From: Candidatus Saccharimonadota bacterium
GTDB lineage: Bacteria > Patescibacteriota > Gracilibacteria > BD1-5 > UBA2023
Direction: 5' to 3'
Assembly (NCBI GenBank): GCA_042852035.1
Contig: BAAFHK010000001.1
Location: forward strand, 570,001 to 602,000
Length of the DNA stretch: 32,000 bases
Shown here: one piece after another, positions 1-32,000 of the stretch
How the letters are laid out: the number at the start of each line of letters is the position of its first letter
Numbering within the stretch: the stretch's first letter is position 1
The notes under the pieces: generated by a model
The model's input: the letters and a program-made list of their open reading frames with translations, nothing else
What the model was told of the DNA's origin: nothing
Database searches by the model: none
Translations under genes and position numbers: made by a program

Positions 1-2106
1 AGTGTAGGTATCAAAATAGAGAGTATTTGATAGAGATCATGTGCTACCCCATGATACATCCACTGGTTCTCCAGTAGGAACTGATCATGAAGAAAGATTC
101 ATGTTACAAGCTGGTGTAGTAGTAAGATTTGGGGAGTTGTTCCAGAGGACAAAAGTAGTTGAATACGGAGCAATAGTAATAGGCCAGCTTGTCGTAGCAT
201 TAAGTCAATCAACATAAGCGAAGCACTGTGCTCCTCCTGGACAAGATTGGGTTGCTGGAGTTCCCGTAGAATTTGAATATGCTAGCACTTCGTATGTATT
301 TGTATTTTTTACATGCGTAGAGAGTCTGTGTAGAGTTACCTCATCAATCTCATATGAGATATCGTTATTGGAAGTTTCAAGAGTCAATTGAGCATCAGCT
401 GCTGTTGTAGTTGCGGTAATATAGAAAGAAAATACTTGGCCCGTAGAACTCGCATATGTTTCAGCGATTCTGTCTGAATAAACTACAGATTTATCAGCTG
501 ATGAATGAAGAAAGGCACGGAGATTAATTTGTCCAGAATTTGATTTTGCATATCCAGTTACATGAAAGACTTGTCCAGAAGTAATGGAAAGAATTGCATC
601 ATTCGTAACCCAGATTCTATCTGGAGACCCTCAAGCTGGCGTAACCGTTGCAGATCAACCAACATTACTTCCAACTGCATTATAACTGATTCAAGGAGCA
701 CTTCATGTGAGAGCAGAAACACTCCAATTTGAGGCATCTACTGAGAAATCACCATTAGTAATAAGATTTGATGTAGCATAGGTTCCGGTATTAACATATG
801 GCTTATATCCAAAATACTCAAATTTCGTAATATTCGGATCGAGTTGATTGAGTGCAGCCTTTGTATATTCAACTACCTCTCCTCAAAATTTTACCGTTCT
901 TGCATATGATGCATTTGGTTTATAGTTTGGAAAAATACTATTGGCATCAAATGTAGAAAATCCACTGACAACACCAGCCCCTGGAACCTCATCACGCATT
1001 TCAATATATGGATAATCTGGAGCCCTTTGAATAAAGGTATTTCCTGTAAAACTATTATTTTGTGTTGCTCAGCTATTATTTTGTATTAGAGAAAGTGTAT
1101 TTATGCGAGATGACAGAAGCATATTCTGAGAAACGGATGAATTTGACGTATCCACCATTCTTACTGCATATTGAGCATTTTGAATTCCATTCTTTATCAC
1201 TGAAAGTCCACTTATTCACTGAGCCAATACTCAGGCATTTTCGCTAGCAGCAATTCAGGTTCCTACATCCCTGATACTATTTTCAGTAAGAGAACTTGTA
1301 ACAGCTCCTATTGTCGAAGAGCTATTTCGAATCGCGGCACACTCAGTAGATCAAGTTGTACAAACGGTACTAATATTATTTCTCATTACATCAGTATCAG
1401 ATCAATAAAGAATAGCGCTTTCTGCAATATTAGTCATTGTATTATATGATACATCTACCGGGTAACTACTCAACACATTAATACCATCACCCGTAATTGA
1501 AGAAATTATATTATTCGAAATAGTTGTAAGTGATCATGAAACGCTCAGAGCTCCAAGACAGTTGGAAATAGTATTGCCATCGATAAGCACTCATGAGGAA
1601 GAATTCACAGCTGCACATGTTGCATTTGCTCATGAAATAGTAGAATTCATGACAGTAATATTGCTTGAAGTATCAATATCAACTATTGATCCAGGGAGAG
1701 AATCTGATACATCAATACCACTAATCACAACATAGCTTGATCCAATAATATTCACTCATTCTACAGTAGCAGTATCGGAAGGACACCCACCATAACTATT
1801 GATTGTTATTGGAAGTCAGACGGATCATGGGAGACTGCTGAGATTTAAAGACTCAGCCCAAGATGCACTACACAAAAGAGATACCGTATCACCCTGAAGA
1901 AGTGGAGTACCGTTAACTTTTGCGAGGGTTTGCCAGGCAGTCGTTGGAGAGAGTCCATCATTTCCATCATTCCCAGAAACAGCATCTACATAGTACTGTG
2001 TCGAATCAGCAAATGCATACTGCAAGGTAGGAGAGAAGGTATTAGCAAGAAACATTACGAGAAGTACTCGTGCAATATTCTGAAACCATGTGTTATGAGG
2101 GTGCAT
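1..2106 (-). CDS. Large secreted right-handed beta-helix (pectate-lyase-fold-like) surface protein with a CBM-like distal region; 3' end lies outside the window
   Basis: One minus-strand frame is open from 2106 to position 1 when TGA is sense. I walked lines 1-240 and 361-1860 codon by codon and saw only in-frame TGA, no TAA/TAG; 241-360 lies inside the track's TGA-bounded 205..387 ORF. The N-terminus MHPHNTWFQNIARVLLVMFLANTFSPTLQYAFA looks like a signal peptide. It is followed by YYVDAVSGNDGNDGLSPTTAWQTLAKV, a typical start of parallel beta-helix proteins, then N/S/T/I-rich repeat turns. NLITNGDFSVDASNW further on resembles CBM4/9-type sugar-binding modules. Confidence 0.7.
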
Positions 2107-2725
2107 ATTTGTAAAAAAAGTGATCTTTTACATTAGACCACATCTTTTTTATTTTTGCAAATATCCGAACTATTTTGAATTTAAGATTCAAAATCTGTTT
2201 CACTTTTTGTTCTAAAACCATAGAGAACATAGTCTGAAGGCGTAAGTTTCGAGGAGTCAATTTGCGCCTTTTTACAGACAAGATCAAAATATGCGGCTGG
2301 GCTGGTATCAATATGAATCATATTCGGAAGAATAACAGCGAACTTTCAGAGATTCTGAGACAAGAACATAATTCATTCATTTTTCGTATCAATTTCAGTG
2401 ACATCGCGAAGAACTCTGCGATCTCATGCGGAAAATCTATCAGTACGAATATGGATCTTTCAAAGAGTAGCAAGATCTTGGATTTCAACTCAAAACCGAG
2501 AATCCTTAAGGCACATGAGTGTATTATCAACACATTCATAAAGTGTATTTTCTTTTTTGCAAACAATCCTCCCGCTCGAAGCAATAACTCTTCACTCATA
2601 ATAGAGAGTAATAAATACTGCTTCTTTGGATGCGGTATATTGACTAATATCAGATGTGAAGTCAGAGAGAGTGATAACCCTCTTTTCTCGAAGATATGTA
2701 TCAAGAACATTCCGAACAATTGCAA
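2093..2725 (-). CDS. Hypothetical protein (210 aa), no family recognised
   Basis: Track ORFs 2318..2725 and 2093..2311 share a frame and are joined by one TGA at 2318-2320. The true stop is TAA at 2093-2095. It has the same orientation and tight spacing as its neighbours, starting 11 nt after the upstream stop. Composition (L/I/F/K/E) is more protein-like than the overlapping plus-strand ORF. Confidence 0.45.
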
Positions 2726-2735
2726 ACATATATGA

Positions 2736-3518
2736 TTATTTTTTAGATTGAAACTGTGTTAAGGTTTGAATTGCTTCATTCTCAAGAGCGCGTTCTTCTT
2801 CTTCAATTCTTCAGAATACAGAACCGAGTGGATCCGATCCAGAAGCCTGATATATTTTATAGTATATCCAAGAAAATGCCGTAGTCATGACTCAAGAGAG
2901 AACATATGCAAGAATTGGAAGTCAGAGTAATACAAAAAGTGAAGTTTCTGATTTTGAGACGAGTGATTGCACATATATTACAAGCATAGCTGTAACCAGC
3001 ATCGAAATGAGACTCGAATAAAATGACAATATTGAATATCTATACCTTGAAATAATTCACATGAGCAGATTGAGGGAGAAAGCATTCATTACGACATGAG
3101 CCGAAAAGGCAATAAGAATAATTCTCATTTCCGTTGAAACCGTTGTTATAACTGTATAGACAGGAATAAAAAATATATATAAAATAATTGATGAAATCAT
3201 TACTTGTGAGAAAGATGTTCGATTTCTTCAAAACACATGTGGAAATATGTATCCCAAAAGAGATACGTATATAAGATTTCCAATTGTAAGTCAGACAAAT
3301 GCTACAAAAACAAGTAATATCGGTGATGCACCACTCTCAAGAGTAAATCTTCAAATAGCAAAATAAGATGCAAGCATGATTATAATACCAGCTACAACAC
3401 CCACAATAAGAGAACTTAAGAAAGTCATAAGTATACCCATTGGATCATACTTTGGTGGACCAAGGAGTTCTTCTGGAGTAACATTATTTTCGGTTTCAAC
3501 TACCTGAGGAGAATCCAT
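2736..3518 (-). CDS. Polytopic integral membrane protein (about 260 aa), unknown function
   Basis: The frame of track ORF 3351..3545 stays open through seven in-frame TGAs down to TAA at 2736-2738. The first ATG is at 3516-3518 (MDSPQVVETENN...); an upstream TTG at 3545 is an alternative start. There are several long hydrophobic stretches, for example ILMTFLSSLIVGVVAGIIIMLASYFAIG and MLVTAMLVIYVQSLV, and an acidic C-terminal tail (RIEEEERALENEA). Confidence 0.6.
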
Positions 3519-3945
3519 AAGCAAAAACAAGAATAATAGCGCCAACTGAGATTAATATATCCGCAAAATTCAGGATTGCAAAATATTTCACAGCGATAAA
3601 ATCAACCACATGTCAGATAAATATTCGCTCATAAGCATGGGAAAATGCTCCCGCAAAAATAAGGACATACGAAATATCAAGAAGCAGTAAATTTTTTTTA
3701 TATTCTTCTTTTATGTAGTAAAAAATAAGTCATGCAAGTATAATAATCGTAATCCATACAAGAAAAGCTCATTCTATAGGAAAAGAAAAGGCAACTCATG
3801 AATTATATGAAAGCCGTAATGTGATTAAATCAGAAAAAAGAGCAATTTTCTCTCCATGGGAAAGCAACCCTTCGAAATATGCTTTAGAAAGCATGTCCAG
3901 AGCCACAAAAACAAGCACGCAAGTAACTATTAATAATTTTCGCAT
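3484..3945 (-). CDS. lspA: Lipoprotein signal peptidase (signal peptidase II)
   Basis: Motifs LSYNSGVAFS (the G is TGA at 3796-3798) and GHVVDFIAVKYFAILNFADILISVG match the LspA N-x-G-A-A-F-S and VVDF...FN.AD boxes. Stop is TAA at 3484-3486. I chose the start at ATG 3943-3945 (MRKLLIV...) because it follows the cutA stop; the track start at 3996 is an alternative. Confidence 0.8.
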
Positions 3946-3952
3946 TATAGAT

Positions 3953-4267
3953 TTAAGAAAGTAATTCTCCTCGTATCCAATTTTCATATCACTCATTCGA
4001 ACTTACTTCTGCAATCTTCATAATGCATGGGATATCGTATTTATGATTATTTTCGATGTATCTTTTGATTGCTTCTATATTTTCATTTTTGGTTTTATAA
4101 AGAGTTACGAACTCTTGGGTACGAGCAATAGATCAGTCCCAATGATACAGCGAATCAATAGGAAAAGAGTTTGCACAAGCAATAAGCTTTTCATTTAAGA
4201 GGCCTATACTGATTCTATCTGCCTCAGGTTTTGAAGGATGGGTTACATAAAGAAGAGAAAAAGACAT
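3953..4267 (-). CDS. cutA: Divalent-cation tolerance protein CutA
   Basis: 104 aa: MSFSLLYVTHPSKPEADRISIGLLNEKLIACANSFPIDSLYHWDGSIARTQEFVTLYKTKNENIEAIKRYIENNHKYDIPCIMKI. It shows the CutA pattern (LIAC.N, Y.W.G.I, KT, H.YD.P). The WxG glycine is a TGA. Stop is TAA at 3953-3955. The gene is absent from the ORF track because TGA splits it. Confidence 0.72.
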
Positions 4268-4270: not shown

Positions 4271-4660
4271 TTAATGATTTAGATTTTGTTCCACCATAAG
4301 TCTCTGTTTTTGTTTTTTCTTTACATTTTGCCAATCTCAGTTATCTGAACCATCATTCACATTGAGACGCTCAGAGAATTTTTGATAGCACCGTTCAAAT
4401 ACTTTTTCTTTTTTAATTTTCCCAACTTGATCAAGGGATTCAAGAAGACATATGTAATCCCAAAAAACATCACCGAGCTCATCCTCAAGAAGAACCCTCT
4501 TATCATCATTAAATTCAATCTTTACTTCATCTATCTCATTGAGGAGCCCTTCGATAAAAGTCTCTGGTCATTTATAAAATCCATGTCAGCCTCATGCATG
4601 AAGGTGCCTCATCCTAAGTTCAGCAAGCTCAAATATATGAGCCAATTCTTTGGGTATCAT
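4271..4660 (-). CDS. MazG-like nucleoside triphosphate pyrophosphohydrolase
   Basis: 129 aa with the EDELGDVFWDYICLLESL motif (MazG E-x-x-E/ELGD box) and several in-frame TGAs (HAGGGHGF). Stop is TAA at 4271-4273, 3 nt before the cutA start. Confidence 0.6.
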
Positions 4661-4665: not shown

Positions 4666-5820
4666 TTATAGTGTTATTCTTTTCGCTTTCTTTTTTCCCA
4701 TCTCTATAAGTACTCCTTCCTGAGTTACTTTTACAAGATATTTTGGGTCTTCAATAATCTCACCATTCAGGCGCACGGATTTTCCAGAAAGAGCATTACG
4801 AACATCCCCAGATGTAGAACAAAAGCCTATAGCCTTCAAAATGTTAGCAATTGAATCCATGTTATCTTCAAGCGATATTCGAACAGTTTCAATATTTGAG
4901 CTATCACTCGGATCATATGGTTTTCCATGATACATCCTAATAATTCTCTGAGCCAGTTCTTCTTTAAGAATATTTGGATGTTCACCATCCTCAATTCTTT
5001 TGCGAATTTTTGCAACTTCATCAAGTGTCGCATCCGTCGTGAGTTCAAAGTAAGGAACGATAAGCTCATCCTTGATCGAGATGAGTTTTTGGTACATGCT
5101 CTGTGGGGCTTCGTCAATTGCAACACTATTTGGTGAAGTTTTCGACATTTTCTTGCCATCAGAACCAACCAGGAGGTCGAACATCATAATATCTTGCTTT
5201 TCTTGTCCGAAAGCCTCCTGGAGCCTTCTTCCTGCAAGAAGATTAAAGTATTGTTCGGTTCCTCAAAGTTCAACATCAGTATGAAGAGCGACTGAATCAT
5301 ACCCTTGCATGAGAGGGTAGAGAAATTCTTGAAGAGAAATACGAACTCCCGACTTATATCGCTTCGAGAAATTATCACGATCAAGCATTTCTGCAACAGA
5401 GAAGTTTTTAGCAAGTTCCCCCACTCCTGCAAAATTCACCTTATCAAGCCAGTCGCTATTGTAAACAACTTTTACTTTTTCAAGATCAAGAACTCGAGCA
5501 AATTTTTTCAAAAATTCCTGACCATTTGCACGAGTCTGTTCACGCATAAGCATAGGTCGTTCTGAATCCTTATCAGAAGCATCACCTATCATTCCTGTAG
5601 CATCACCTATAATAATAGTCACCTCATGTCCAAGCTCTTGGAATTGGCGGAGCTTGAGAATTGGTACCATATGGCCCAGATGAATAACTGTACCCGATGG
5701 GTCAATTCCAAGCTTTATCCTGAGCTTATCTCATCGTTCAAGTCGCATTCGAAGATGATCTTCATCAATGATTCTTGCAACTCATTTCTTGAGTAAAGAT
5801 TCAATTTGTGGATTTTTCAT
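4666..5820 (-). CDS. tyrS: Tyrosyl-tRNA synthetase
   Basis: Track ORFs 4666..5187 and 5263..5670 plus the N-terminus are in one frame. It carries the HIGH motif (IHLGH), ELGGTEQ (the G is TGA at 5263-5265), KMSKT (KMSKS box) and a C-terminal S4-like domain (VRNALSGKSVRLNGEII). Start is ATG at 5818-5820 and stop is TAA at 4666-4668. Confidence 0.93.
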
Positions 5821-10446: not shown

Positions 10447-13400
10447 CTAGGCTCATTTCTTGTCTAGCCAATCTTCAAGACCAGAGAGTGAATCAATGGA
10501 AAACTTTGTATCTTTTTCTACTCCATGTATACGTATCCAAATAGGATGGAGTCCCACGGGACTTTTCTCTAAGAAATCTCGAAGGTCGAGAAGATCTTGT
10601 TTTGTCCAGAATGCTGGTATATCAATATAGTATTTTCCTGGGGCTGGCTCATTCTTCGAGAAAGAATCATCTTCCACTAGATGAGAAGATTTTTGATTAC
10701 TTATAAGCATTCAACTATTGTTTGCCATATCTCGAAATACTGATATAGAGAAACATTTTACGCTTCAAGCCTCATCAAGCATTTTTTTTCTTCCAAATGG
10801 AGCGGAGGGAAATATTGATAATTCTCCTCTTTCATGATCAAATTTTACACGACCATTAACAACCACGATTGTATCTTCTGTTATTTTTGATTCATACATA
10901 TCATAATCTTTTGGGAAAATTACAATACGAAAATCAAAGCCAACGCTTTCAACATTAGCAGAAAGCATCATGCCTCAATTTCTTGTCTGTATTTTACGAA
11001 CCTCAGTAACAATTCCCATAAGTTGAGCAAAAATTGATTCCTCTTTTTGTTCTTGAGGAGGAAGATTAGATTCCTCAACTATACCTTCTTCTTGTTTGTC
11101 GCTCTCAATATTGGTCTGAGGAGGATTAATTTTTGGCTGAAGAGATTCAGGGACGTCTTCATCAAGAGTGACATCTCCTATAATATCCTCATCTCCAAGT
11201 TTCCGAGACTGAAGTAACTCAAGAACCATGGAAAGATTCTTAGATTTTGCTTTTATATAGGATTCTATACCCTCGAGTGGATGACCTGATACGGGGTATC
11301 CAATCATTGCTTTCTCTCCTTTTATACGATCTTCAAGTCACATAGGAAGAGTTTTTTCTAAATCGAAGTGACTTACTTCATTCGCATCTCCCATATCAAA
11401 AAGTCAAAGTTGAGAAGTTTCGCGTTTAGACTCAATTTCCTTCTGGAATGCTCCCATTTTCGGAATGGAGGCAAGAAGGGAAGCTCGCTCACCGAAAGAA
11501 TCAAGAGCTCAAGAGAGTATCAAAGATTCAAGCGCTCTTTTATTTATAACATCACCTCATGTGCGCTCTATAAAATCGAATATACTGAGAAATACTCATT
11601 TTTCTCTTTCGTTTAGAATTATATCTATAGGACCATCCCCGAGCCCCTTAATTGCCTTAAGTCCAAAACGAATAGTTTGATTATCAATGTAAGTAAAATG
11701 TTTTTTTGATTCATTTACATCAGGGGGAAGTATTTTAATATTTTTCTCTCGAGCTTCTGTTATTTCGAGTCGTATACGATCCGTATCTTCCTCATCACTC
11801 GTCATCATCGCTGTCATAAATTCTGTGGGAAAGTATGCCTTCATATATGCTGTTTGATATGCTATCATAGCATAGCATGCCGCATGCGATTTATTAAAAC
11901 CATATCAAGCAAATGGCTCAATAATTTCATCAAATATATATATCGCAAGTTCTTCTTTATTTCAGCACTGGACTGCTGCCTCGATGAATTTTCCACGTTG
12001 TTCCATAAGGAGTTCATATTTTTTCTTCCCTATGGCACGCCTGAGAATATCAGCCTCTCAAAGCGAAAATCATGCAAATGCCTGAACAAGCTGCATAATC
12101 TGTTCCTGATAGACAGCAATACCATATGTCGGCTTAAGTATTTCTTCAAGTGATGGATGTGGATAGTCTACTTTCTTTCTTCCAAATTTTCGATCAATAA
12201 AATCTGGGATATATCACATTGGCCCAGGACGATAAAGAGAAACCATAGCAATAAGGTCTTCGAATGATGAAGGCTTAAGTTCCTTCAAGTATCGCCTCAT
12301 TCAGTCAGATTCAAATTGAAACACTCATGTCATATCTCAGAGAGAGAAGAGATTGAGAACATGAGAATCTTCATAGTCGATTTTTAGAAGATCTATTTCT
12401 TTTGCATGAATCCGTTCTACTATTTTTTTTGCTCGATCAAGGATAGCGAGATTCCTAAGTCAAAGAAAGTCCATCTTAAGGAGACCGAGCGATTCAAGTG
12501 GACCGGCTGAGAATTGTGTTACTATAGAATTTGGATCTTTTGGTGGTGGCTGGAGTGGACAAAAATGGGTCATTGGCTCTGGAGCAATAATTACTGCACA
12601 AGCATGTACACCAAGCTGTCTTACGGATCATTCCATTTTTAAGGCAGTATCTACAATTTTTTTATACTTCTCATCATTATCGTATGCAGCCTTAAACTCT
12701 ACAGCTTCTTCTAGGGCTTGCGAAAGAGTAGTGCCGGGTCTTCCTGGGATAAGTTTTGCAAACTCATTCATTTCCTGAAATGGTATCCCAAATGCTCGAC
12801 CCGCATCCTTAATAGCGGCACGTGCGGCAAGCGTACCAAAAGTACACACCTGCGCAACATGATCATTTCAATATTTTTCTCGAACATACACGAGAACCTT
12901 ATCTCTTCATTCATCAGAAAAATCAACATCGATATCTGGCATGGTTACGCGAGAAGGATTCAAAAATCTCTCAAACAGTAAGCCATAACGAAGTGGATCA
13001 ATATCAGTAATTCAAGAAAGGTACGCAAGAATTGCTCAAGCAGCCGAACCTCGTCAAGGTCAGACAGGTACTCCATTATTTTTTCAGAATTTTATGAAAT
13101 CAGCAACAATACAAAAATAACCATTAAATCCCATTAAATCTACCACAAGCAGCTCGTATTCCAATCGAGATATAATTGATTTTTGTTTATCGCTTAATTT
13201 CGCAATAATCAATTTTTTCTCTTCAGGATAATGACTTCGTGAAAGTTCCTGAAGTTCTTCGATAATCATTTCTGAAAGCTTTTTTTCTGGTTTTTTTACT
13301 GCAAGCTTTGAAACCATTACATCATGATCTTCTTTACTTAAAACAATATCATAACGATATTCAAGTCCACCTATACAGAGTTTTCTTAAAAACCATTCTT

Positions 13401-14364
13401 CCTCAGAAAGGTTCTGAAGAACTATTCATCAGGAAATATTCTGCCTCTCATTATTTTGAATAAATTCCTTATACTCTTCTTCTTGCTCGTCTGTAAGAGG
13501 AAATTTTGGTATCTTATATCATCATACATCAAGTTCCAGTTCAATCATTGAGGCAATTTTTGCTGTATTTTCATATGCTTTCGGCGCATAGATAAAAAGT
13601 TCTTCCATCTCTCGTGAGGAACGGATGGAATAATCTCCATTCATCAAAGTATTTCTATCTGGATCATCAAGAGATCGACCATCGGAAACACTCATCATTA
13701 TATCCTGAACACTTGCATCCTCAGGCGAAACATAGTATGAATTATTTGTTCCCACAAATTCATAATCGTATTTCTTAGCAAGTTTTACGATTGTATCATT
13801 GATATGTGGCTGGAGTGATTTGTCTGGGTGCTCTTCTATCTCAAGATAATAGTTATCTTTCCCAAAGAGGGAAATGTAGTAATCTATTCGTTTACAAATT
13901 TCTTTCTCCTCTTTTCCTGTTGATATCATTTGCGCAATCTCACCATACATAGAACCTGAAAGTGCAATAAGATTTTCATGATACTTCTCTAAAAGATCAA
14001 AATCTATTCTTGGTCTCCCAGAAACATATCATTCTATTTGGGAGAGAGTTACCAAATCTATAAGGTTTTTATATCAATCGCGATTTTTTGCAAGAAGAAC
14101 AATTTCAAAAAGCTCATTATCCTTATCTCTATTTGCTCTTCATTTTTTTGAAAGAAGAAATTCAACTCAGAGAATTGGCTTGATTCAAACATCTCGACAC
14201 GCCATATAAAATTCAAAAGCCCCATACATATTTCAGGTGTCCGTAAGGGCAATCGCAGTTTGTCCAAGTTCTTTTGCCTTTTTTGCAATTGCCTCAGGAG
14301 TGCCAAGTGCTCTTTGGAAAGTGTAGTGAGAGTGCGTATGAAGATGGACAAAATTCATATTCAT
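10447..14364 (-). CDS. dnaE: DNA polymerase III alpha subunit
   Basis: Seven track ORFs (10453..10710, 10765..10971, 10975..11307, 11596..11868, 12628..12849, 13084..13317, 13522..13950) share one frame. I checked the gaps between them codon by codon and found only TGA. The N-terminal PHP domain reads [52 protein letters not shown] (the G is TGA at 14233-14235), with GIKPILGVE and NRDGYKNL. The terminal TGA at 10453 is read through to TAG at 10447-10449. Confidence 0.95.
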
Positions 14365-15473: not shown

Positions 15474-15510
15474 TCGAAGAGCCTAAGTGAAAAATCCTAG
15501 AAACCAAATT

Positions 15511-15539
15511 TTGAAGTATTCACAGAATAAAAATAATAT
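15511..15539 (+). promoter_or_regulatory. Candidate sigma-70-type promoter for the histidine kinase operon
   Basis: TTGAAG (15511-15516), a 17 nt spacer, then TAATAT (15534-15539), in the divergent intergenic region. By-eye match only. Confidence 0.35.
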
Positions 15540-15604
15540 GAGAAAGATGGAATAAAAGCACTTCATTTCTTGCACAGATAAAGAAACTATGATATCCTAA
15601 AAGC

Positions 15605-17707
15605 ATGTCATTTTTTGCACTCTCTGGAATCTTGCTTTCAATCACTAGCGTCATTATGGCAATGATAATGCTTGTTTGAGAGAGCAAAAAAACAAATATT
15701 CTCTGGGCAGCCGTTTGTGCCTCCATGACATTTCTCTGAGTAAGCATGTTCATGATTGGAACCACAAAAAATCCCACCGAAGCACTGATATGGTGGAGGG
15801 TTGCATATGTATGAGTCTTAACTGTTCCAGTATTGGTAATACATACCGTACTGAGCGTACTAAAAAAGGATGTTGGAAGAAATCTCTTTTTTCTATATAT
15901 CCTCTATATTTTAACATTTGCCTTTCAGATAATAAACGCTAGTGGGCATCTTATTCTTGATACAACTCTCGTCTTTAAGGAATTTTACTACGACATGCCG
16001 ATGACGACGGCATTTGGCATATTTTTCCTTTATTTTAATCTGACATTTACCTATATATTCATCATTCTATTTCGTCAGTACTTCATTGAAAGAGAAAAAA
16101 ATTATAACCTTGCAACACAGATCTGGTATCTCGGTGTAGGTATAGGATTTTGAGCTGTTGGTGGGTATTCACTTTATCTTCCCATATTTGGGATTATGCT
16201 TTATCCATATGCAAGTATCTTAATGATGTTTTATCCAATTATTATTGGATACGCCATCCTTCATCATCATCTTTTTGATGCGCGCTATGCAATCATGAGA
16301 GTGCTTCGAGTAATATTTATCTTATCTCTCACATGAGGGTTTGCCTATTTACTTACAAAACTCTACGAATATAGTTTTGAGAAGGTTTTTAATTTTCGAT
16401 TTATTGAATTTCTTCTCCTGTTCCTTACGTTTCTTTTTGGAAATGTTCTTATCCGATCAAGGAGAATATCAAGCTATTTTCTTTTATCGTCTCTTCAGGA
16501 GCTAGAGAGGGAAGTATCGATATTTCTTGCCCAAAAGTGAGTCTATAAAAACACTCTGGAACTTCTCAGAGATTTAGAGCCTTTCTTTGAAAGAGGTCTT
16601 AAAATCAATAGAGTTTCTATTCTCCAATCTTCAATTGCGCGAAAATATAAGCATACCTCAAAATACTTCCATACCTATAGAAGACCCTTAATTCTTTCAG
16701 AACTTGAGAATGAGCATATTGAATGAGGAACTCGAGAGCTTGTAGATGAGGTCAGAGAGATGTGACGCATGATTTTTCCTATAGAAATATGAAGTAAAAG
16801 CGATCTTCTATTTCTCGTTATCGGACCAAAACTTACAGGACAAAAAATAACTGAAAGTGAAGTGATGATGATTCTTCGAATTCTCCCAAAGATAGCTATG
16901 GCGCTTCAGATTCTGAAGTTCAATCAGTCACTTCAAGCTGAAGTAAAAAGAAAGACTCATTCTCTTGATGAAAAAAACAAGGAGCTCAAAGATGCCTATG
17001 AAAAATTAAAAGAAATCGACAACAATAAAGATAACTTTCTTGCGATTGCTTCGCATGAATTACGGACACCGATGACGATTATTAAGGGTTATGCTGATCT
17101 ATTTCTTCAAAATACCCTCGGACCAATGACCGAAAATCAAAGTCGGTACATGGAAAAAATTTTTGAGAATACTGAAGGACTCATAGAGCTCGTAAACAAC
17201 ATCCTTGATATTTCTAAGATTGAAGCCTGAAGAATGGAAATTTCCTTAGGAGATATGAAAGTTCAAGAAGTTATCAACTCTGCCCTCGAATGATTCCAAA
17301 AGCTTTGTGAAGAAAAATGAATTACACTAAAATTAAATAATGAGCTTACCGTAGATATTATTCATTCTGATGAACAGAAATTTCGTCTCATTATTACCAA
17401 TCTTCTATCCAATGCCTATAAATTTACCCAATCAGGGGGATTTATCACTGTAGTTGTCTCAAATACAAAGAAGCAAATTCAAATATCGATTACAGATAGT
17501 TGAATGTGAATTTCTGAAGATAGACTTCCATTCATTTTTGAAAAATTTAATCAGTCGGAGAATGTTGACTACACAAAAAAAAGCATAAAATGAACCTGAC
17601 TTGGCCTCAATCTCTCAAAACAAGTAGTTGAAATGCTCTGATGAACCATAGAAGTAAAATCCACAATGTGAATTTGAAGCACCTTTACTTTTTATCTTCC
17701 ACTCTAG
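15605..17707 (+). CDS. Sensor histidine kinase with an N-terminal multi-pass (7TM-like) membrane sensor domain
   Basis: The plus frame is open from ATG 15605 to TAG at 17705-17707 with only TGA interruptions (checked). The N-terminal about 300 aa is a series of hydrophobic helices (MSFFALSGILLSITSVIMAMIMLVG..., IWWRVAYVGVLTVPVLVIHTVL...). The H-box is FLAIASHELRTPMT and the N-box is LLSNAYKFT. The G1 box is ITDSGMGI (TGAs at 17501-17503 and 17507-17509). The G2 box is KGTGLGLNLSK (TGAs at 17591-17593 and 17597-17599). Confidence 0.85.
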
Positions 17708-17708: not shown

Positions 17709-18446
17709 ATGATTTCCAAAGGCTCAAACTGCTTAATCTATACTCTTGATGCAGATCTCATAGGAAAGCTCATTATGAATGGGCATTCCCTACACTATGT
17801 TTCAGATATTGAAAATCTTCTCAAAGAAATAAAAGAACAAAATCCTGATTTAATTATTTTGGATCTTATAAGGAGTGTGGATCTAAGTGCAATAAACTCA
17901 CTCATGCATGTAAATAATCATGTAATTATACGATGAGAAGTTGATCTTAGCAGTATTGAGGTTGAAGTAATGAAGAATATCGTCCTCCTTCCAAGTTGAA
18001 TTTCAAATGATTCGATTCTTGAAAGGGTAACGCACTTTTATGAATATGAAAGCATTGCTGCTGAGAAGCCAGTTAAGGTACTTATAATAGAAGATAATAT
18101 CGATATTATCGAAATGTATGAGCTTGCGCTTCAAAGTAAATGATATGAAGTTACTCGAGCACTCGATGGACTGACGTGAGTTACGAAGGCTGTAACTCTT
18201 CGTCCAGATGTAATTATACTTGATATAATGATGCCAAATATGGATGGTTTTGAAGTTTTGCAGGCACTTAGAAATAACACCTCACTCCGATCTCTCATTA
18301 TTACCAATAGCAATCTTGAATGAGTGAATGAAGAGAAGAAAGTAAAAGAACTTGGTTCTGATTATTTCTTAAGAAAATCTGAATACACCCCCCTTGATGT
18401 AGTCTGATTCATAGAAACAATCCTTCAAAGCCGCCACGCAAGTTAA
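17709..18446 (+). CDS. Response regulator with a degenerate N-terminal receiver-like domain plus a canonical receiver domain and no recognisable output domain
   Basis: The ATG lies 1 nt after the kinase stop. The C-terminal half reads KVLIIEDNIDIIEMYELALQSKGYEVTRALDGLTGVTKAVTLRPDVIILDIMMPNMDGFEVLQALR...FLRKSEY (acidic pocket, phospho-Asp, conserved Lys). The N-terminal half (CLIYTLDADLIG...PDLIILDLI) looks like a second, degenerate receiver. Stop is TAA at 18444-18446. No HTH or enzymatic domain follows. Confidence 0.8.
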
Positions 18447-19971: not shown

Positions 19972-21060
19972 ATGCAAATCTGAATCGTATGACTTCCGAA
20001 TGTCGGAAAATCGACACTCTTTAATGCTCTGACAAAATCGTATGCTGCAGAGGCGGCAAATTTCCCATTTTGTACTATCGAACCGAATGTTGGTATTGTA
20101 AACGTAAATGATGATCGACTTGAGAAAATACGAGTCGTTGTAAATGGGGCTAAAACCATTCCTGCAACAGTAGAGTTTGTTGATATTGCTGGACTTGTCG
20201 AGTGAGCAAGCAAAGGAGAATGACTCGGGAATAAATTCCTCTCACATATAAGAAACGTTGACGCTATCCTTCAGGTTGTCAGGGATTTTAATGACTCAAA
20301 TGTTCATCATGTAAACGGATCGATAGATCCAAAGAGGGATATTGAAGTTATTAATCTTGAGCTCATATTTGCCGATCTCGAAACTCTCGATAAGCGTATT
20401 GGCGATAATTCCAAAAAGGCTCGATCTGGAGACAAAGAAGCAAAATCTCGCGAAGATATCTATAATCGATTAAAATCTCACCTCGAGGAAGGGAAGATTG
20501 CCTCACTTTTGGAAATGACTGACGAAGAAAAGAGTGCCATTGCCGATCTTCATCTTCTTACAAATAAACCATTTATATATGCAGTAAATGTTGCTGAAGA
20601 TAGGGTAAATACTTCTGAATCTGAACTCCGTTCTATTACAGGTATTACTGATAAGAAAATTCCTGTCCTTCCGGTAAGCGCAAAAATTGAGATGGATATG
20701 CTTGAGTTTTCTGACGAAGAGAAAAAAGAATTTCTCTCTGAAATGGGTATTGAGTTTAATCCAATGGATCAGATTATTAGAACGTGTTATGACCTCCTTG
20801 GGCTCCAATATTACTTTACCGCAGGAGAAATAGAAGTAAGAGCTTGGACCATTCATAAAGGCTGGACAGCTCCTGAAGCTGCTGGGGTTATCCATACGGA
20901 CTTTCAGAAGAAATTTATTAAGGCAGATACCGTAAACTGGCAAGATCTCGTAGAAAATGGATGATGGACTGGAGCAAGAGAAAAAGGAAAAGTTCGCATG
21001 GAAGGGAAGGAGTATGTTGTAGCCGATGGAGATGTAATGCTCTTTAAGTTCGGTGCATAA
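19972..21060 (+). CDS. ychF: Ribosome-binding ATPase YchF (Obg-like GTPase family)
   Basis: [21 protein letters not shown] (TGAs at 19981-19983 and 19990-19992 encode the two G), [24 protein letters not shown] (two more TGA glycines), and a C-terminal TGS-like [37 protein letters not shown]. Stop is TAA at 21058-21060. Confidence 0.93.
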
Positions 21061-22131: not shown

Positions 22132-24309
22132 ATGGCAAAAAGAAAAACGAGAACAAATTCCCCCTTCCTTACCTATGAGTTTCAAAATATCCTCGCATGA
22201 GGAATTTTGGTGACACTCGGCTTTCTAATGTTTCTTTCAACCAAAGAATCTTCAGTTATTGGGTGATACCTTGCTGAGGCTGGAAAGGTTATTTTTGGAA
22301 AATATTACCGATGGACCTCTGCACCAATACTTGTTATCCTTGGTATTATGATCCTTGTAAAAAAAGCAAGCTGGTCTGCTTCGAGAGCGGTAGGAATACT
22401 TCTATTTTATATTACAAGTTCTTCACTCATTGGTTGGTATACAAAATCTGTATCTGGATATCTTGATATCTACAAGCCTCTTGAAGAATATCTCGGAAAA
22501 TCAAGCGCATTTCTTGCAATTCTCGCTGCCTGGTTCGCGAGTATCTATCTAACACTACGTATATCATATCGGACTATTCTCTCAAAGGTCCGAGAATCAG
22601 TCCCATCATTTCGAGAAGTCCGAGAATCCGTACTACCATCTCGAGAAGAAAGTTATGAAGAAGAGGCTCCTCAAAAACGATCAAAAGGGGATGATGCCTA
22701 TAAAAAGAAGGCTGAAGAGCTTGAAAAGAAACTCGAAAGCATACAAAAGACTCGCGAAAAATCATGAGAAAAACCTCCCGTGAATGGAAAGACCATTATT
22801 GGAAATGCACTTGCTTCTCTTACGAAAAAAATTCCACTTGAAACCAATGATGGAAAAGTTATAGAGCAAAAACCAAAGCATAATGTTGATTTTTGAACAT
22901 GGGATTTCCCGAGCGTCAAACTTCTAAATGAAATTGAGCATCGTTCCATAGTTTCCCCCGAAGAAATCGAAGAAAAATCAATACTCATAGAAAAAACACT
23001 TCTTCAGTTTGGCATCGATGTTGAGATGGAAGGAGAAAGTGTTGGTCCTACCGTAATTCAATATCGACTCCGGCCAAGCGAATGAGTGCGTCTATCAAAG
23101 ATTGAAAGCCTCAAAAAAGATCTTACTCTCGCACTAAAAGCAAAATCTATTCGTATCCAAGCGCCGATTCCAGGGCTAGGACTTGTGGGGATTGAAGTTC
23201 CAAATGAAAAGCGCGATATTGTTTGAGTAAAAGAGGTACTTTCCGATGAGGCATTTTCTCATCATAAATCCCGTCTAGCACTCGCAATGGGGAAAGATAT
23301 CAATGGTGATTATATTACCTGAGATCTCGCAAAAATGCCTCATCTTCTCATCGCATGACAAACTGGATCTGGAAAATCAGTCGGGATGAATGGATTTATT
23401 CTCTCTCTCCTTTTTAAGAATACCCCGAGCGAGCTTCGTATGATTATGGTTGATCCGAAACAGGTAGAACTTGGAGTGTACGATGGAATTCCACATCTTC
23501 TTACGCCTGTTATAAATTCACCTGATAAAGCACTCAATGCTCTCAAATGGGCAGTTGCTGAGATGGAACGTCGCTATAGCACGCTCAAACCCGTGAATGC
23601 GAGAAATCTCGAAGAATATAATGCGAAGGTTTCTCCAAAAGATCGCATGCCCGTAATTGTTATCATTATCGATGAACTTGCTGATCTCATGATGAGCGGA
23701 AATAAAAAAGAGGTTGAAGCAGCCATAACTCGCATCGCCCAAAAGGCTCGTGCTGTCGGACTACATATGATTCTCGCGACACAAAGACCTTCGGTTGATG
23801 TTATCACGGGACTCATTAAAGCCAATGTTCCTTCTCGTGTCGCATTTACAGTGGCTTCACAGGTTGACTCTCGAACCATTTTAGATTCTATCTGAGCCGA
23901 GGATCTCCTTGGGCGTGGTGACATGCTCTACTTCCCAACTGGTGCTATGGCAGCAACACGCGTTCAGTGAGTTCTCGTAGAAACAGATGAAGTTGAACGA
24001 GTCGTCAATCACATCAAACGTACCATTGATCCAGCAATGCTTGAGGAAATATATGATAATACTATTGTTGAATGAGATCGAGGAAACTGGGAGGGAAGTA
24101 GCGGAGGAGGAGACTATGGAGATGAAGATCCAAAAATTATCGAAGAAGCTATCGAGCTCGTACGAAGCAGTGGTAAATGTTCAACCTCTATGCTTCAACG
24201 TCACTTAAAGCTTGGGTATGGTCGCGCAGCTCGTGTGGTGGATATACTTGAAGGGATGGGGATTGTTGGCCCTGCGGATGGCTCAAAACCGAGGGAGGTG
24301 ATTGGATAA
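22132..24309 (+). CDS. ftsK: DNA translocase FtsK/SpoIIIE
   Basis: It has N-terminal TM helices and a charged linker. Walker A is [16 protein letters not shown] (the G is TGA at 23356-23358). Walker B is [12 protein letters not shown], followed by [15 protein letters not shown]. The C-terminal gamma winged-helix reads [31 protein letters not shown]. Track ORFs 22348..22767 and 23386..23895 are in this frame. Stop is TAA at 24307-24309. Confidence 0.93.
22588..22647. repeat. Tandem 30-nt duplication inside the ftsK linker
   Basis: GTCCGAGAATCAGTCCCATCATTTCGAGAA is followed directly by GTCCGAGAATCCGTACTACCATCTCGAGAA, encoding [10 protein letters not shown] / [10 protein letters not shown]. Confidence 0.7.
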
Positions 24310-24832
24310 TTCTATCTACAAGGAATGAGAGTCAGAATTTTAGATGATCTTTCCCTAAAGGAAATTGTACTTCATGCTCTACATTATGATCAAGAAGTAC
24401 AACACTCCCATCTTGAATAGGGTATTTTTTTTTATCATTACCTTCACCAATAACAAAAACTCATCCTTCATGTCCATAAAGTGGAACGAACACAAAAGAA
24501 CAATCATCTATGCGCATCTTCGTAAAACCAACTGGAATTTCAGTGTCATCATGCGCATCAACTCTCCTATAACAAATAAGGGAATTCACATTTGCATAAC
24601 GCTTAGCAAGTCTTAATCATACTTTTGCTAATACTCTATCAATCTGCACCATCTGTTCATGAGTAAAATTTGGTTGTGCATAGAGCCACCTTGAGTCTAC
24701 TCATCGCGTATTCTTATGAATAATTCAGAGTGTCATTATCTGGTTTGCAAAAAGAGATTTGAGCATCTGGAGTAACCTTGGAGACAGTGGACGATTACGA
24801 AGAACTGCAACACCATCTGGAGATTTAAGCAT
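24188..24832 (-). CDS. AlkB-like 2-oxoglutarate/Fe(II)-dependent oxygenase; the 3' tail overlaps the ftsK 3' end
   Basis: It shows an HxD...H pattern: RRVDAHDDTEIPVGF ... FVFVPLYGHEGGVFVIGEG ... DGSVVLLDHNVEHEV ... KFGLSFLV, where the last strand resembles the RxxLTFR strand of AlkB-type enzymes and its G is TGA at 24332-24334. The first TAA/TAG in frame is TAG at 24188-24190, 122 nt inside ftsK. Confidence 0.55.
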
Positions 24833-26308: not shown

Positions 26309-26328
26309 GCAAATGAAATTTATAAAAT

Positions 26329-27111
26329 ATGTGAAAAATTCTTATCAAAACCCCGGAACAAATAGAGGGCATACGAAAGGCGTGAAAACTTACAGCAATG
26401 ACTCTTGATATGATTGGTGCCTATGTAAAGCCGGGAATCTCCACCCTCGAGCTCGATAATATCATGAACGCTTTTATCATAAAAAATGGATGAATTTCAG
26501 CATGCATCGACTATCTTGGAAATAATAAGTACGGAAAATCACCGAATGCCTATAAACGATGTACTTGCATATCCTTGAATGACGTTATCTGTCATGGAGT
26601 GCCGAGAACTGATGAAATTCTGAAAGAGTGAGACATTCTCAATATTGATGTCACTACCATTGTTGATGGATATTTTTGAGATGCCTCTCGCATGTACACC
26701 GTAGGAGCCCTATCAGATCAGGCAAAAAAAATCATAGCAGTCACAAAACGAGCATGGGAAATTGGAATAGAACAAGTTCGCCCAGGAAATTATTTCTGAA
26801 ATATTGGATATGAAATTGCGAGATACGCAGAAGGGGAATGATGTTCTGTAGTACGAGAATACACCGGACATGGAGTGGGAGTTCAGTTTCATGAAGAACC
26901 CTATGTCTACCATAAAGCCGAGAAAAATAGCGGACCAAAAATGCAACCTGGAATGATTTTCACTATAGAGCCCATGATTAATCTTGGAAGATATGCTACA
27001 AAGATTGATAAAGATAACTGGACTGTACGAACCAAAGATGGATCCCTCTCGGCTCAATTTGAGCACACAGTGCTCGTAACAGAGACAGGATATGAGATAC
27101 TTACAAAATAA
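26329..27111 (+). CDS. map: Methionine aminopeptidase, type I
   Basis: MGKILIKTPEQIEGIRKAGKL (two TGA glycines), CHGVP, NIDVTTIVDGYFGDASRMY, EYTGHGVGVQFHEEP, MIFTIEPMIN and SAQFEHTVLVTETGYEILT include the metal-ligand D, D, H, E, E pattern. Stop is TAA at 27109-27111. Confidence 0.93.
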
Positions 27112-27412: not shown

Positions 27413-27859
27413 TTATCAGACCCTCTCCCATCTCTCAATCTTTATTCTAGCTACTTTTACAGAAAGGGAAAGGGACTCATCGATTTTTATCTCATTGAGA
27501 AGTTTTGCTGCAAAATCAAGTATTGCCCTTCTTTCATGGGGCTGATTTACGATCGCGATGCGTATTGTTTCGAGCAAAGAAGAGAGAATTGATGACTTGC
27601 CTTCTGTAGCCTCAGATAAACGCCGAGAAAAAATCGTCACAATTGGTCCAGCTTCCATACAGTCATAATTTGAACAGACATCCTGAAAACCAAGATGTCA
27701 TTTCCATTTTTTATATATTCGACAGCGGTTCTTTATATCGAGGTATCCGCATTTTTGTCATGCTTGTTTTATATGTTTACCAGTATTAGAGTCAAATATA
27801 TCGTAGACGCGACAACAAAGACCATCACATCGCTCACACATCGTATCCGCCGTAGGCAT
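27413..27859 (-). CDS. YkgJ-family (CxxCxxGxCC) putative zinc/iron-chelating protein
   Basis: MPTADTMCERCDGLCCRVYDIF... carries the CxxCxxxCC signature of the UPF0153/YkgJ family, with further Cys residues (CGYLD, NRCRIY, CSNYDC). Track ORF 27416..27658 is its C-terminal part. One terminal TGA is read through to TAA at 27413-27415. Confidence 0.62.
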
Positions 27860-27961: not shown

Positions 27962-29365
27962 CTAATGAAAGAATTTAATTCTATCAGCACTTGGATGCGT
28001 TCGAAGTTTTTCGAGTGTTTTAGCCTCAATCTGACGAACACGTTCACGTGTAACACCAAATTCTCGACCTACTTCTTCAAGTGTATGCATCTCACCACCA
28101 TCAAGACCAAATCGCATAACAATAATTTTCTTTTCGCGAGGCGTAAGAAAATCAAGCATATCGTAGAGATTTTCTTTTAGAATCGAGAGATTCGTTGCTT
28201 TTTCTGGTGTGAGGTACTTATCATCTTCAACGAAATCACCAAGAGTTGTATCTTCCTCGCCACCAACAGGGGAGTCGAGAGAGAGGATATCTTGTGATAT
28301 TCTCATAATTTGACGCACCTTTCGAACATCCATCTCAAGCTCAAGTGCAAGCTCCTCCATGAGAGGTTCACGCGCAAGTTCTTGTGTAAGGCGACGATAG
28401 GTATGATTAAACTTATTTATTGTTTCGACCATATGAACTGGAACTCGGATAGTACGAGCCTGATCAGCAATGGCACGAGTTACTCCCTGACGAATCCACC
28501 ATGTTGCATAGGTTGAAAATTTAAATCCTCGATCAGGATCAAACTTATCCACCGCACGGAAGAGTCAAACATTTCACTCTTGAACGAGGTCAAGTAAGCC
28601 AAGACCACGACCCATATATTTTTTTGCAATCGAAACAACGAGACGAAGGTTTGCTTCAGCAAGTCGTTTTCGTGCCTCTTGATCTCACTTCTGAATAAGT
28701 CGACCAAGTCGAACTTCCTCTTCGGCATCAATAAGAGGGAATCGTCCTATCTCATTGAGATACATTCGAATCGAGTCGTCAGAAATTTCAGAGAGATCAA
28801 CTTCTTCTTTTTTCTTTCCAGCATCTTTAAACATCTCCTCATTGTCGAGAGAATCAACGAGTTCTACCCCAAGCTTTGCAAGTCGTGAAAACACCTCATC
28901 CATAAGCTCAATATCATCCCCAGGAGGAAGTGCTCACATGACCTCATCATAGACAAGCTTTCCCTCAGACTTTCCTTTTTTAAAGAGAAGTTGCATTGGC
29001 TCTGGCATGCCATCAAGAAATTCTTCTGGAACGGTAACATCAAGAAACTTTTTTAAATTCTTTTTTCTACGCTTATCTGTAAAAAAATCTTTTGGTCCTA
29101 CATATCCATCTTCAGTTTTTTCTTCTGATGCACCCTCTTCCTCAAAATCAAAATCATCATCAAAATCATCATCAAAATCATCATTAGTTTCCGAATCGGA
29201 AGGAAATTCTTCCTCTTCATGGGTATGAATTTCTTTTTTATTCTTAGAATCAGTGACTGATTTTGGTATAGTGTCCAGTGGTATGTTAATTGCATCAATA
29301 TCTATTGCAGCAAGATCTATTTCTTCCACTGCAGTATCTTTTGGGGGTTGTTTTTTTGAAGCCAT
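27962..29365 (-). CDS. rpoD: Primary RNA polymerase sigma factor (sigma-70 family)
   Basis: Track ORFs 27962..28552, 28685..28903 and 28934..29365 share one frame. Region 1.2 is [21 protein letters not shown]. Region 2 is [54 protein letters not shown] (TGAs at 28574-28576 and 28565-28567). Region 4 is [28 protein letters not shown]. Stop is TAG at 27962-27964. Confidence 0.95.
29149..29184. repeat. Three perfect 12-nt tandem units (CAAAATCATCAT) in the acidic N-terminal region of rpoD
   Basis: On the minus strand they encode [13 protein letters not shown] partial fourth unit lies at 29143-29148. Confidence 0.75.
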
Positions 29366-29374: not shown

Positions 29375-31081
29375 CTATTGGTTATATTTTCAAATGACAC
29401 TCGGAGAGAGTCAAAACGAGAGAGCCTTTTGAATAAGTTGGTTATGATGTTCAAAAGTATAACATCATGTCTCTATGGCACGTTTTTTCTCTAAGACAAG
29501 GAGCTCTATGTGAAGATGCTTAAGGAGGTCTAAGAATACTTTTCGTATTTGGGACATATCTTCATCAGGATGTATCGACTCCAAGTGAAGGGACAAGATT
29601 TTGAGTCGCTCTTCTTCTTCAGGATCAAGATTTTCCTGATTTATAACGTGAGATAATAGCGAAAAAATCCCTTCATGGGGAAAGTCGGCTAGAGTATACT
29701 GAAATTCTTGAGAAAACAAGGAGAAAAGTGAATATCTGAAAATATATCATGCAAGAAGCTCAGTTGGAGTGAATGATTCCTTTTGTAACTCCTCATTTTG
29801 AGATATTTTTTTATAGTAACTCTTTGTATCTCGGGCAAAATTTCATTTTTTATATTCTATCTGGATTGCGTCCTTTGAGACTCAAAGGCTTGAAGCAATT
29901 TCATTCATATGCATATCGATTTCGATTTGGGATTTCAATGAAAGAAGAAAGATTAAGCATTTTTCTATAAGTTTCTTTTTTCCGATAATTGTTGTTAAAT
30001 CAACTTCTCGACCTCATTCTTTGAGATAAAAGCCAATTGGAGAAAGTGCAGATCACCTAAGATCGCCAAATATACCTCATGATTTAATGAATTCATCTGG
30101 ATCTTTTCCATTTGGAATTTCCATAATTCTTACCTCAATATCTTCATTTGCAAGAGACTCAATGGAAAGAAAAGTAGCCTTCACTCAGGCGTCATCACTA
30201 TCAAGACACAGGTAAATGGTTTTAGCAAATCGTTTTAGGATATGAATATGTTCTTTTGTTAAGGCTGTTCAGCTTATTCATACAGCATTTTCAATTCATG
30301 CCTGATGAAGAGAGATGGTGTCCATTTGCCCTTCAACAACATAGGCCTCACCTGTTTTTGATATAGCTTGCTTAGCAAGATGGAGGCCATAGAGTGTAGA
30401 GCTCTTATCAAATATTTTTGATGCTGGAGAATTGAGGTATTTGGGGAGCGCACTATCAAGAACACGACCAGTAAATGCTACTACATGACCCATACTGTTA
30501 GCAATAGGGTAGGTAATACGCCCAAAGAATTTATCCCGTCATTCAGAAATAAAGATGCCTGAATCAATAAGGAATTGTGGACTAAATCATTTTTCCTTAA
30601 GATAATACCATAAATCCCTCGGGGAAGTGGAACAACCGAGTTGAAACTTTTTTATCGTTGCATCGCTGATTTTTCTCTCTTGCAAATATTGGAGATAACG
30701 CTTATTTTCTTCTTTGTAGAGCGATTCATGGTACCATTGTGCAGTTATTCGATAGAGGGCATAGATATCGCCTCCAGCCTCAGCTTTCTCTTTTTGAAAA
30801 TCTACCTTGAGCTCTACTCATGCCTCCTTTGCAAGAACTTGAATAGCTTCACGAAATTCAATCTTCTCCATTTCCATCAAAAACTTAATAGGTCCACCCC
30901 CTTTCCCACAAGAGAAACAGTGTGCAATATTTTTTTGTGGAGAAATAATAAATGATGGAGATTTTTCATTATGAAACGGACAGAGCGCCTTATAATTCAC
31001 TCCCGCTTTCTTTACATCCACATATCGACCAACGATATCAAGAATGTTGACCCTAGATTCTATATCTTGAGAGAGAGACAC
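29375..31081 (-). CDS. dnaG: DNA primase
   Basis: Track ORFs 30818..31081, 30296..30493 and 29465..29719 are in one frame with only TGAs between them (checked). The CHC2 zinc finger is CPFHNEKSPSFIISPQKNIAHCFSCGKGGG. TOPRIM motifs are VVEGQMD and LCLDSDDAG. The start is GTG at 31079-31081, the first start after an upstream TAA. The terminal TGA at 29465 is read through to TAG at 29375-29377, 9 nt before the rpoD ATG. Confidence 0.92.
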
Positions 31082-31120
31082 GATTTTTAGTTAAAAATTT
31101 AAGAAGATTAAAAAAGCACT

Positions 31121-32000
31121 CTATCTTCGGATTACAAATTCGATATTATCCAGATTTGAGGAAACCCGTGTGAGCCAAAATGGAGAGAATTTAATTTCCA
31201 CCTCATGAACACGACCCTCTGCTATGAGTCGATTAATAGCCTCCTTTTTGGGAAGTCAAGCAATCATGACTTGCATACGACGAGTAAGTTCATTGCTCGA
31301 GTTTTCGAGATCATAAGTAATAGTCGTATTCATCTCCATTGTGGCCTTAATATTCATGTCATTTTCATCACGAGTTATTATATTAGTAAGACGAAGACTT
31401 TCTTCGTGAATAGCAAGCTCTTTATCGGTTCCAAGAAGAAGTTTTTCTCGAAAAATTCCTGCAAGATAGTTTATTACAGCTTTTCGATCATAGATAAGTG
31501 CGTAAGCATTGATTGATCCTTTCAGTTCTACCTCATCTGCAGGATCTCCAATCTTTTCTCATGACGCAATCACTATCGTTTCACCCGTGAGAACAAGGGC
31601 CTCTCACATCAGAAGAGCATAATCCTCACTATTATTCTCATTCTCATTTTTTAGCCACTCATCTAGATTTGTTCGAGCAGTCCGCTTAAGTTGTTCACGA
31701 AGTATTGCCTTTCATTTTTCAATCTCTGGCTTAGTAATAATTCTAACTGCTGAATCAGCCCCTCAGAGAAAATTTTCTTTTGTCTTTGCATAAACCTTCT
31801 CACGATTGAACTTGAGTCCCGGTATAGAAAGATATGTACCTGTAGGAATATTTCCACGTGATCCAACAATTCTTCAACCTTCATCAAGTTGCTCAGCCTT
31901 GACGTAAACTTCAACCGCACCAATCTCAGTCACTCCATTAACCTGACGAGCTGCAGGAACATTAATCCACTCATCTGTTTTAAATACAATGCCTTCTTCA
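31121..32000 (-). CDS. Hypothetical protein, C-terminal 293 codons (5' end outside window)
   Basis: This frame has no TAA/TAG from 32000 down to TAG at 31121-31123 (checked line by line) but several TGAs. It reads ...VEVYVKAEQLDEGGRIVGSRGNIPTGTYLSIPGLKFNREKVYAKTKENFLGGADSAVRIITKPEIEKGKAILREQL...KFSPFWLTRVSSNLDNIEFVIRR. The listed track ORF 31663..31923 is in a different frame. Confidence 0.55.

Follow-up and report, generated by a model that had tools for sequence, protein, structure and literature searches.

TGA is read as glycine throughout a 32-kb window of the HHAS10 genome

The window analysed here is a stretch of 32,000 nucleotides of chromosomal DNA from HHAS10, a metagenome-assembled genome (MAG) that NCBI lists as Candidatus Altimarinota bacterium and already translates with glycine at TGA. 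The locus raises the question of how the codon TGA is decoded. An earlier note, made from the sequence alone, had claimed that TGA is a glycine sense codon, neither a stop nor a tryptophan codon, and this claim is supported by the residues found at the TGA columns in E. coli, by the DNA of relatives and by Pfam profile scores. We regard it as practically certain that the HHAS10 window uses translation table 25, with UGA as Gly everywhere and only UAA and UAG as terminators. TGA is read through, is functionally synonymous with GGN and never terminates a gene in the window, and none of the data speak against the table-25 reading.

Open reading frames (ORFs) were called in the window (GC content 36.9%) with TAA and TAG as the only stops, and starts were left unrefined. 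Stop-to-stop frames of at least 150 amino acids cover 20.5% of the window under the standard code (table 11) and 95.2% when TGA is a sense codon, which is the outcome of the coding-density comparison of tables 11, 4 and 25 that the earlier note had proposed. When TAA or TAG was made a sense codon as a control, frames of this length covered 36% and 27%, respectively. Table 11 leaves no frame of at least 300 amino acids, whereas 14 such frames exist with TGA as sense, the longest comprising 1308 amino acids. Calling with TAA and TAG only gave 29 ORFs that occupy 97% of the window and hold 249 in-frame TGA codons. UGA is thus read as sense within conserved genes, and single Pfam domains (e.g. DNA_pol3_alpha, DEAD, CLP_protease and FtsK_SpoIIIE) continue uninterrupted over many TGA positions. 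As had been claimed from the sequence, the housekeeping genes are cut under the standard code; table 11 fragments every long gene in the window. The 14 codons that the earlier note had named are all TGA, in the frame and the sequence context it gave, and its warning that the supplied ORF track is misleading was justified: table 11 yields 26 ORFs of 100 or more amino acids, namely 15 in-frame gene fragments (13 of them truncated by a TGA), 8 antisense artefacts, 1 ORF in the wrong frame and 2 others.

Fragmentation of every housekeeping gene under table 11 would also be seen if TGA were a true stop and the genes were pseudogenes, or if the assembly or the sequencing were in error. However, the genes that contain 249 TGA codons contain no in-frame TAA or TAG at all, the TGA codons concentrate on glycine columns, TGA is shared with independently assembled relatives at 63 aligned positions, and essential genes (dnaE, rpoD, tyrS and ftsK) are affected; the probability left for a true stop is negligible. 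UGA is, on the other hand, also the selenocysteine codon of standard-code bacteria, and the in-frame codons could be taken for selenocysteine or programmed read-through sites. With 24 TGA per 1000 codons, found in every gene, with TGA columns that match Gly and not Cys in E. coli, and with no Rfam match in the window, selenocysteine insertion sequence (SECIS) elements included, this explanation is vanishingly improbable.

In the comparisons with Pfam and E. coli, TGA was masked as X, so that the amino acid was not prejudged. Same-clade database proteins were left out as amino-acid evidence because they are printed with G or W by the annotation pipeline and their use would hence be circular; E. 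coli, PDB chains and the raw DNA of relatives served instead. Ten E. coli K-12 orthologues, which follow the standard code, were aligned as outgroup to the X-masked window proteins. The E. coli residue opposite TGA was Gly in 55 of 87 columns (63.2%) and Trp in none, compared with 61.7% Gly opposite GGN codons of the window (n=227) and a Gly background of 7.7%, while TGG codons of the window faced Trp in 41% and Gly in 0% of the columns. The Gly excess of TGA over background is highly significant (p=3e-39), as is the lack of Trp if TGA acted like TGG (p=1e-20), and TGA and GGN columns were indistinguishable in this comparison (Fisher p=0.90). In PDB chains of ClpP and DEAD-box helicases, G occupies the TGA columns in NSPGG, Walker A and GRTGRAG, and W never occurs; the six TGA columns of the window ClpP are R, G, A, G, G and G in the PDB ClpP chains. 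Homologues thus carry Gly rather than Trp at the UGA columns. The statement that the TGA codons fall on invariant glycines was too strong: 63% of the TGA columns are Gly in E. coli, and the DnaE codon at 14233-14235 is Thr there. The same codon is GGN in three close relatives.

The relatives were four MAGs, found by a DnaE scan of GTDB species representatives (64-75% DnaE identity), and a fifth, syntenic one from a Logan assembly; only raw DNA was compared, and no annotation was used. The four GTDB relatives likewise carry in-frame TGA. Window TGA codons faced GGN at 175, TGA at 63 and other codons at 23 of 261 well-aligned positions, i.e. the relatives were Gly-equivalent (GGN or TGA) at 238 of 261 positions (91%), against 94% for the GGA control. 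The alignment covers 103 distinct TGA columns, 79 of which face GGN at least once. TGG was found opposite window TGA at 0 of 261 positions, and window TGG never faced TGA. Two of the relative loci (L001 and L002) bear the label "uncultured Candidatus Peribacteria bacterium", which is probably a taxonomic mislabel; both clearly use TGA as Gly.

Five proteins (seven domains) were in addition rescored against Pfam with G, X or W at the TGA positions; an alignment to profiles had been suggested in the earlier note. The scores (bits) were as follows:

HATPase_c, which holds the G1- and G2-box TGA codons: G 100.2, X 64.8, W 58.2
CLP_protease: G 271.0, X 254.9, W 249.1
DEAD: G 157.4, X 146.0, W 141.6
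Peptidase_M24: G 171.1, X 160.6, W 157.6
Peptidase_A8: G 92.0, X 83.6, W 80.9
Helicase_C: G 112.2, X 107.4, W 109.1
HisKA: G 66.1, X 61.9, W 64.3

G gave the top score in 7 of 7 domains, and W scored below G in all seven. X was intermediate between G and W in five domains; in Helicase_C and HisKA, W was slightly above X.

These comparisons bear directly on the proposal that TGA encodes Trp, as in table 4, which is used by Mycoplasmatales, several insect endosymbionts, including Hodgkinia, Nasuia and Zinderia, and some Eggerthellaceae. The two codes have much in common: the same codon is captured, the predicted ORFs are identical in the window, and loss of release factor 2 (RF2) together with a tRNA with UCA anticodon are recognised hallmarks of both. 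Moreover, automated pipelines do choose table 4, and W-translated copies of the proteins studied here are public (Logan). The difference lies in the amino acid, which here is Gly instead of Trp. No TGA column was Trp in E. coli (0 of 87), where TGG columns reached 41%, no TGG faced TGA in the relatives in either direction, W was inferior to G in every Pfam domain, and Trp would make up 3.1% of the residues if TGA were Trp. (Gly makes up 6.9% with TGA counted and 4.5% without.) Decoding as Trp is accordingly highly improbable.

Two points are gaps in the case for decoding as Gly, and neither contradicts it. About 9% of the TGA columns face non-Gly codons in the relatives, but the GGA control has about 6%; and a search with ARAGORN detected no tRNA gene, either in the window or in the seven relative loci L001-L004 and L015-L017, so that a tRNA-Gly(UCA) was not seen. 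By analogy with the literature on the clade, a dedicated tRNA-Gly with anticodon UCA would decode UGA, RF2 (prfB) would have been lost, and release factor 1 would alone terminate translation at UAA and UAG. The window proteins that were scanned showed no Pfam domain of the release-factor family, although the absence of prfB would need the whole genome. A tRNA-Gly(UCA) is known from the clade, with the features G1:C72, C2:G71, G3:C70 and U73 (PMC8629427).

The ends of the genes are in line with TGA being sense only. The 28 complete ORFs, among which are two doubtful ones (g2 and g20), stop at TAA in 20 cases, at TAG in 8 and at TGA in none; the earlier note was right that only TAA and TAG are used, and its tally of 21 TAA and 7 TAG is corrected accordingly. 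The five near-terminal TGA codons followed in frame by TAA or TAG are as it had described them. UGA is thus unused as a terminator, the ends being UAA or UAG and the near-terminal TGA codons being GGN in relatives.

A milder variant would have TGA mostly as Gly, with residual termination or ambiguous decoding at some sites, e.g. near-terminal ones. In 23 of the 29 ORFs, no more than 50 codons separate a TGA from the real stop, and peptides of a BD1-5 bacterium included 3 unique UGA-Trp beside 97 UGA-Gly and 0 UGA-stop (Hanke 2014, PMC4032931); a wobble of U34 between UGA and UGG is considered possible by Shulgina and Eddy (PMC8629427). The one suspect site is the last TGA of the hypothetical gene g23 (24332-24334). 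It precedes 47 more codons, and g23 runs convergently into ftsK with an overlap of 122 nucleotides (24188-24309), which a stop at this TGA would abolish. However, the column is G (GGN) in the relative P0018 and TGA (printed W) in P0019 and P0020, and the tail past it is conserved in three relatives besides the NCBI record. This TGA is therefore a sense codon, and an end of g23 at this position was rejected. Likewise, the penultimate codon of dnaE (10453-10455) is TGA here, L001 has GGN in its place, and the gene ends at the same point in both: the C-terminus KK-G-A-TAG (KKxA*) matches KKGA* of that relative. Where a window ORF could be compared with a complete ORF of a relative, its end either matches the TAA or TAG end of the latter or differs from it by only a few codons, and no ORF in the window requires a TGA stop. 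Residual termination or ambiguous decoding is thus very unlikely. In L002, a neighbouring ORF likewise runs antisense into the 3' end of ftsK. The smaller set of stop codons may, as a by-product, give rise to long overlaps between convergent genes.

Genes of the window that carry TGA codons are listed below with their Pfam families (TGA as X) and, where available, their E. coli counterparts and NCBI proteins.

1..2106, minus strand: g1, beta-helix surface-type protein that runs off the window; 20 TGA; Beta_helix/NosD
3484..3996, minus strand: g4, LspA; 5 TGA, including 3796-3798 (SYNS-G-VAFS), where E. coli LspA has G; Peptidase_A8
3953..4267, minus strand: g5, CutA; 2 TGA; CutA1
4271..4660, minus strand: g6, MazG-domain protein; 4 TGA; MazG
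4666..5820, minus strand: g7, TyrS; 3 TGA, including 5263-5265 (EL-G-GTEQ), where E. coli TyrS has G; tRNA-synt_1b; NCBI GAB0174685.1
8139..8741, minus strand: g11, ClpP; 6 TGA, including 8505-8507 (NSPG-G); CLP_protease; NCBI GAB0174689.1
8885..10177, minus strand: g12, DEAD-box helicase; 15 TGA, including 10034-10036 (Walker A) and those of GRT-G-RA-G; DEAD; compared with PDB chains and E. coli RhlE
10447..14364, minus strand: g13, DnaE; 36 TGA, including 14233-14235 and the penultimate codon; five Pfam domains across TGA codons; E. coli DnaE
14385..15473, minus strand: g14, hypothetical protein; 19 TGA, which make up 59% of its Gly codons; no Pfam family
15293..17707, plus strand: g15, seven-transmembrane histidine kinase (start unrefined); 24 TGA, including 17501-17503 and 17507-17509 (G1 box) and 17591-17593 and 17597-17599 (G2 box); HATPase_c
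17709..18446, plus strand: g16, response regulator; 6 TGA; Response_reg
19972..21060, plus strand: g19, YchF; 5 TGA, including 19981-19983 and 19990-19992 (I-G-IV-G-LPNVGKS); NCBI GAB0174697.1
22132..24309, plus strand: g22, FtsK; 11 TGA, including 23356-23358 (A-G-QTGSGKS), where E. coli FtsK has G; FtsK domains
24188..24832, minus strand: g23, hypothetical protein HHAS10_05790; 5 TGA, the last at 24332-24334; NCBI protein of 214 amino acids, to TAG
26329..27111, plus strand: g25, methionine aminopeptidase; 7 TGA; Peptidase_M24; E. coli Map
27413..27859, minus strand: g26, Cys-rich hypothetical protein; 3 TGA, the final one adjoining the TAA stop; no Pfam family
27962..29365, minus strand: g27, RpoD; 4 TGA, including 28574-28576 and 28565-28567 (QE-G-NV-G-L); sigma-70 regions 1.1 to 4
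29375..31081, minus strand: g28, DnaG; 16 TGA; Zn_ribbon_DnaG, DNAG_N and Toprim; E. coli DnaG

At the TGA motif of RpoD the E. coli protein reads QEGNIGL. In E. coli YchF, G stands at codon 7 (19990-19992) as well as at the other three TGA columns that were aligned; the scripted alignment did not reach codon 4 (19981-19983), where the context line KCGIVGLPNVG shows G too. The C-terminal tail of the helicase (8885-9070) is rich in Arg, Gly and Ser, with seven Gly codons being TGA, and this RGG-like tail can be aligned to the tails of RGG type in E. coli RhlE and in the relative L001.

Other codons of the window keep their standard meaning. In a check of all codons against E. coli, those with usable counts retained the standard top residue, the exceptions being low-count ties for Ser, Asn and Cys. 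A reassignment of further codons was conceivable, as CGA and CGG are predicted to encode Trp in Absconditabacteria, and CGG in some Gracilibacteria (Shulgina and Eddy 2021, PMC8629427). Absconditabacteria are a sister lineage that also reads UGA as Gly, and the window likewise makes little use of CGG (1.8 per 1000). In contrast to that variant, CGA occurs often (12.2 per 1000), and both codons are still Arg: CGA faced Arg in 186 of 208 comparisons with relatives and in 46% of the columns against E. coli, and CGG faced Arg codons in 12 and Trp in 0 of 17 comparisons with relatives, its E. coli columns (Q, K, N and H) numbering only four, too few to be informative. Judged by the codons of the relatives, a change of CGA and CGG to Trp of the Absconditabacteria type was therefore rejected. 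TGA is the only reassigned codon in the window.

The source organism agrees with this code. The exact G-translated ClpP, YchF, TyrS and g23 proteins are NCBI proteins with HHAS10_* locus tags, encoded on a contig of 750,307 bp. The assignment to Gracilibacteria, which had been proposed from the code, was confirmed in that these exact proteins belong to a Candidatus Altimarinota MAG with taxid 363464, listed as Gracilibacteria by Shulgina and Eddy (PMC8629427). HHAS10 was placed by its authors in c__JAEDAM01, family UBA2023 (PMC11393006), and its genome (1.30 Mb, 3 contigs, 97.7% complete) came from activated sludge (PMC9530719); later fluorescence in situ hybridization located the organism among Zoogloea cells, as an episymbiont. 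NCBI records, the DnaE relatives with TGA and the authors' classification all place the window in the recoded clade. The UGA-to-Gly code is already known for the clade and for HHAS10 itself: Fujii et al. 2024 state it for HHAS10 on the basis of Codetta (PMC11393006), and code 25 has been described as the lineage's trademark (PMC11452946). For hundreds of JAEDAM01 genomes, code 25 serves as ground truth in a gTranslate preprint, which names the loss of RF2 and a tRNA with UCA anticodon as its hallmarks. The available supplementary text of two HHAS10 papers mentions neither Codetta output nor tRNAs nor release factors.

The window resembles the other organisms with table 25 (the SR1/Gracilibacteria code of JAEDAM01, orders BD1-5 and Absconditabacterales) in that UGA is Gly in every gene and the only stops are UAA and UAG. 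HHAS10 is, like them, a small (1.3 Mb), low-GC, episymbiotic Candidate Phyla Radiation (CPR) bacterium. There is no difference of kind, although within the small sample compared the use of TGA is unusually heavy here, at 35% of the Gly codons versus 17-29% in five relatives.

The value of this result is practical and less conceptual, as it adds one more confirmed case of a well-documented reassignment. Annotation, homology search and structure prediction for the window require table 25: with table 11 no long gene stays whole and one in three of the longer ORFs is an antisense artefact, and with table 4 Trp is put in the place of Gly. ClpP and YchF are found twice in public collections, once with G (NCBI) and once with W (Logan), and the lineage proteins P0002, P0005 and P0018-P0020 (Logan/ENA) are given in table-4 translation, with Trp at every TGA.

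The only mildly new point concerns the share of TGA among Gly codons, where quantitative trends were seen in a 32-kb sample that needs genome-wide confirmation. Among the Gly codons of the window, TGA ranks first in use (about 250 versus about 200 GGA). Its share in the relatives was 29% in L015 (38.5% GC) and 17-24% in the others (43-47% GC), and over the six loci it was correlated with GC content (Spearman rho -0.83, n=6, p=0.04), going from 17% at 46.8% GC to 35% at 36.9% GC. The share also varied between genes (chi-square p=0.012); it was low in the most highly conserved genes, TyrS (11%), RpoD (14%), YchF (19%) and FtsK (19%), and high in the lineage-specific hypothetical genes g14 (59%) and g17 (52%). 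If these trends in a 32-kb sample hold genome-wide, UGA-Gly might still be spreading under AT mutation pressure versus weak translational selection, a possibility to which we give a little less than an even chance. If true, it would provide a within-family series for measuring the rebound of a reassigned codon after its capture.

Ten further ORFs, scanned against Pfam with Gly at TGA, matched no family at threshold, and the labels "YkgJ-like" and "oxygenase", which had been given to two ORFs from the sequence, were not upheld, as neither ORF matched a Pfam family even with Gly at TGA. The regions 21061-21515 and 2107-2735 hold no convincing gene, nor an Rfam family (none matched anywhere in the window) or a tRNA. 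Two small ORFs are doubtful, viz. g20 (61 amino acids) and g2 (210 amino acids, rich in Lys and Leu, with 1 TGA only). Four sizeable ORFs without a Pfam family, g14 (14385-15473), g17 (18320-19621), g24 (24834-26372) and g29 (31121-31999), have orthologues in related JAEDAM01 genomes, a pattern typical of CPR genomes, in which many genes lack annotation. The three consecutive ORFs g8, g9 and g10 (5823-8155), likewise without a Pfam family, have N-termini resembling signal peptides, and g8 and g10 may be paralogous secreted proteins, judging from a motif matched by eye (LYYVVPMFPN and LYYFIHIFPN).

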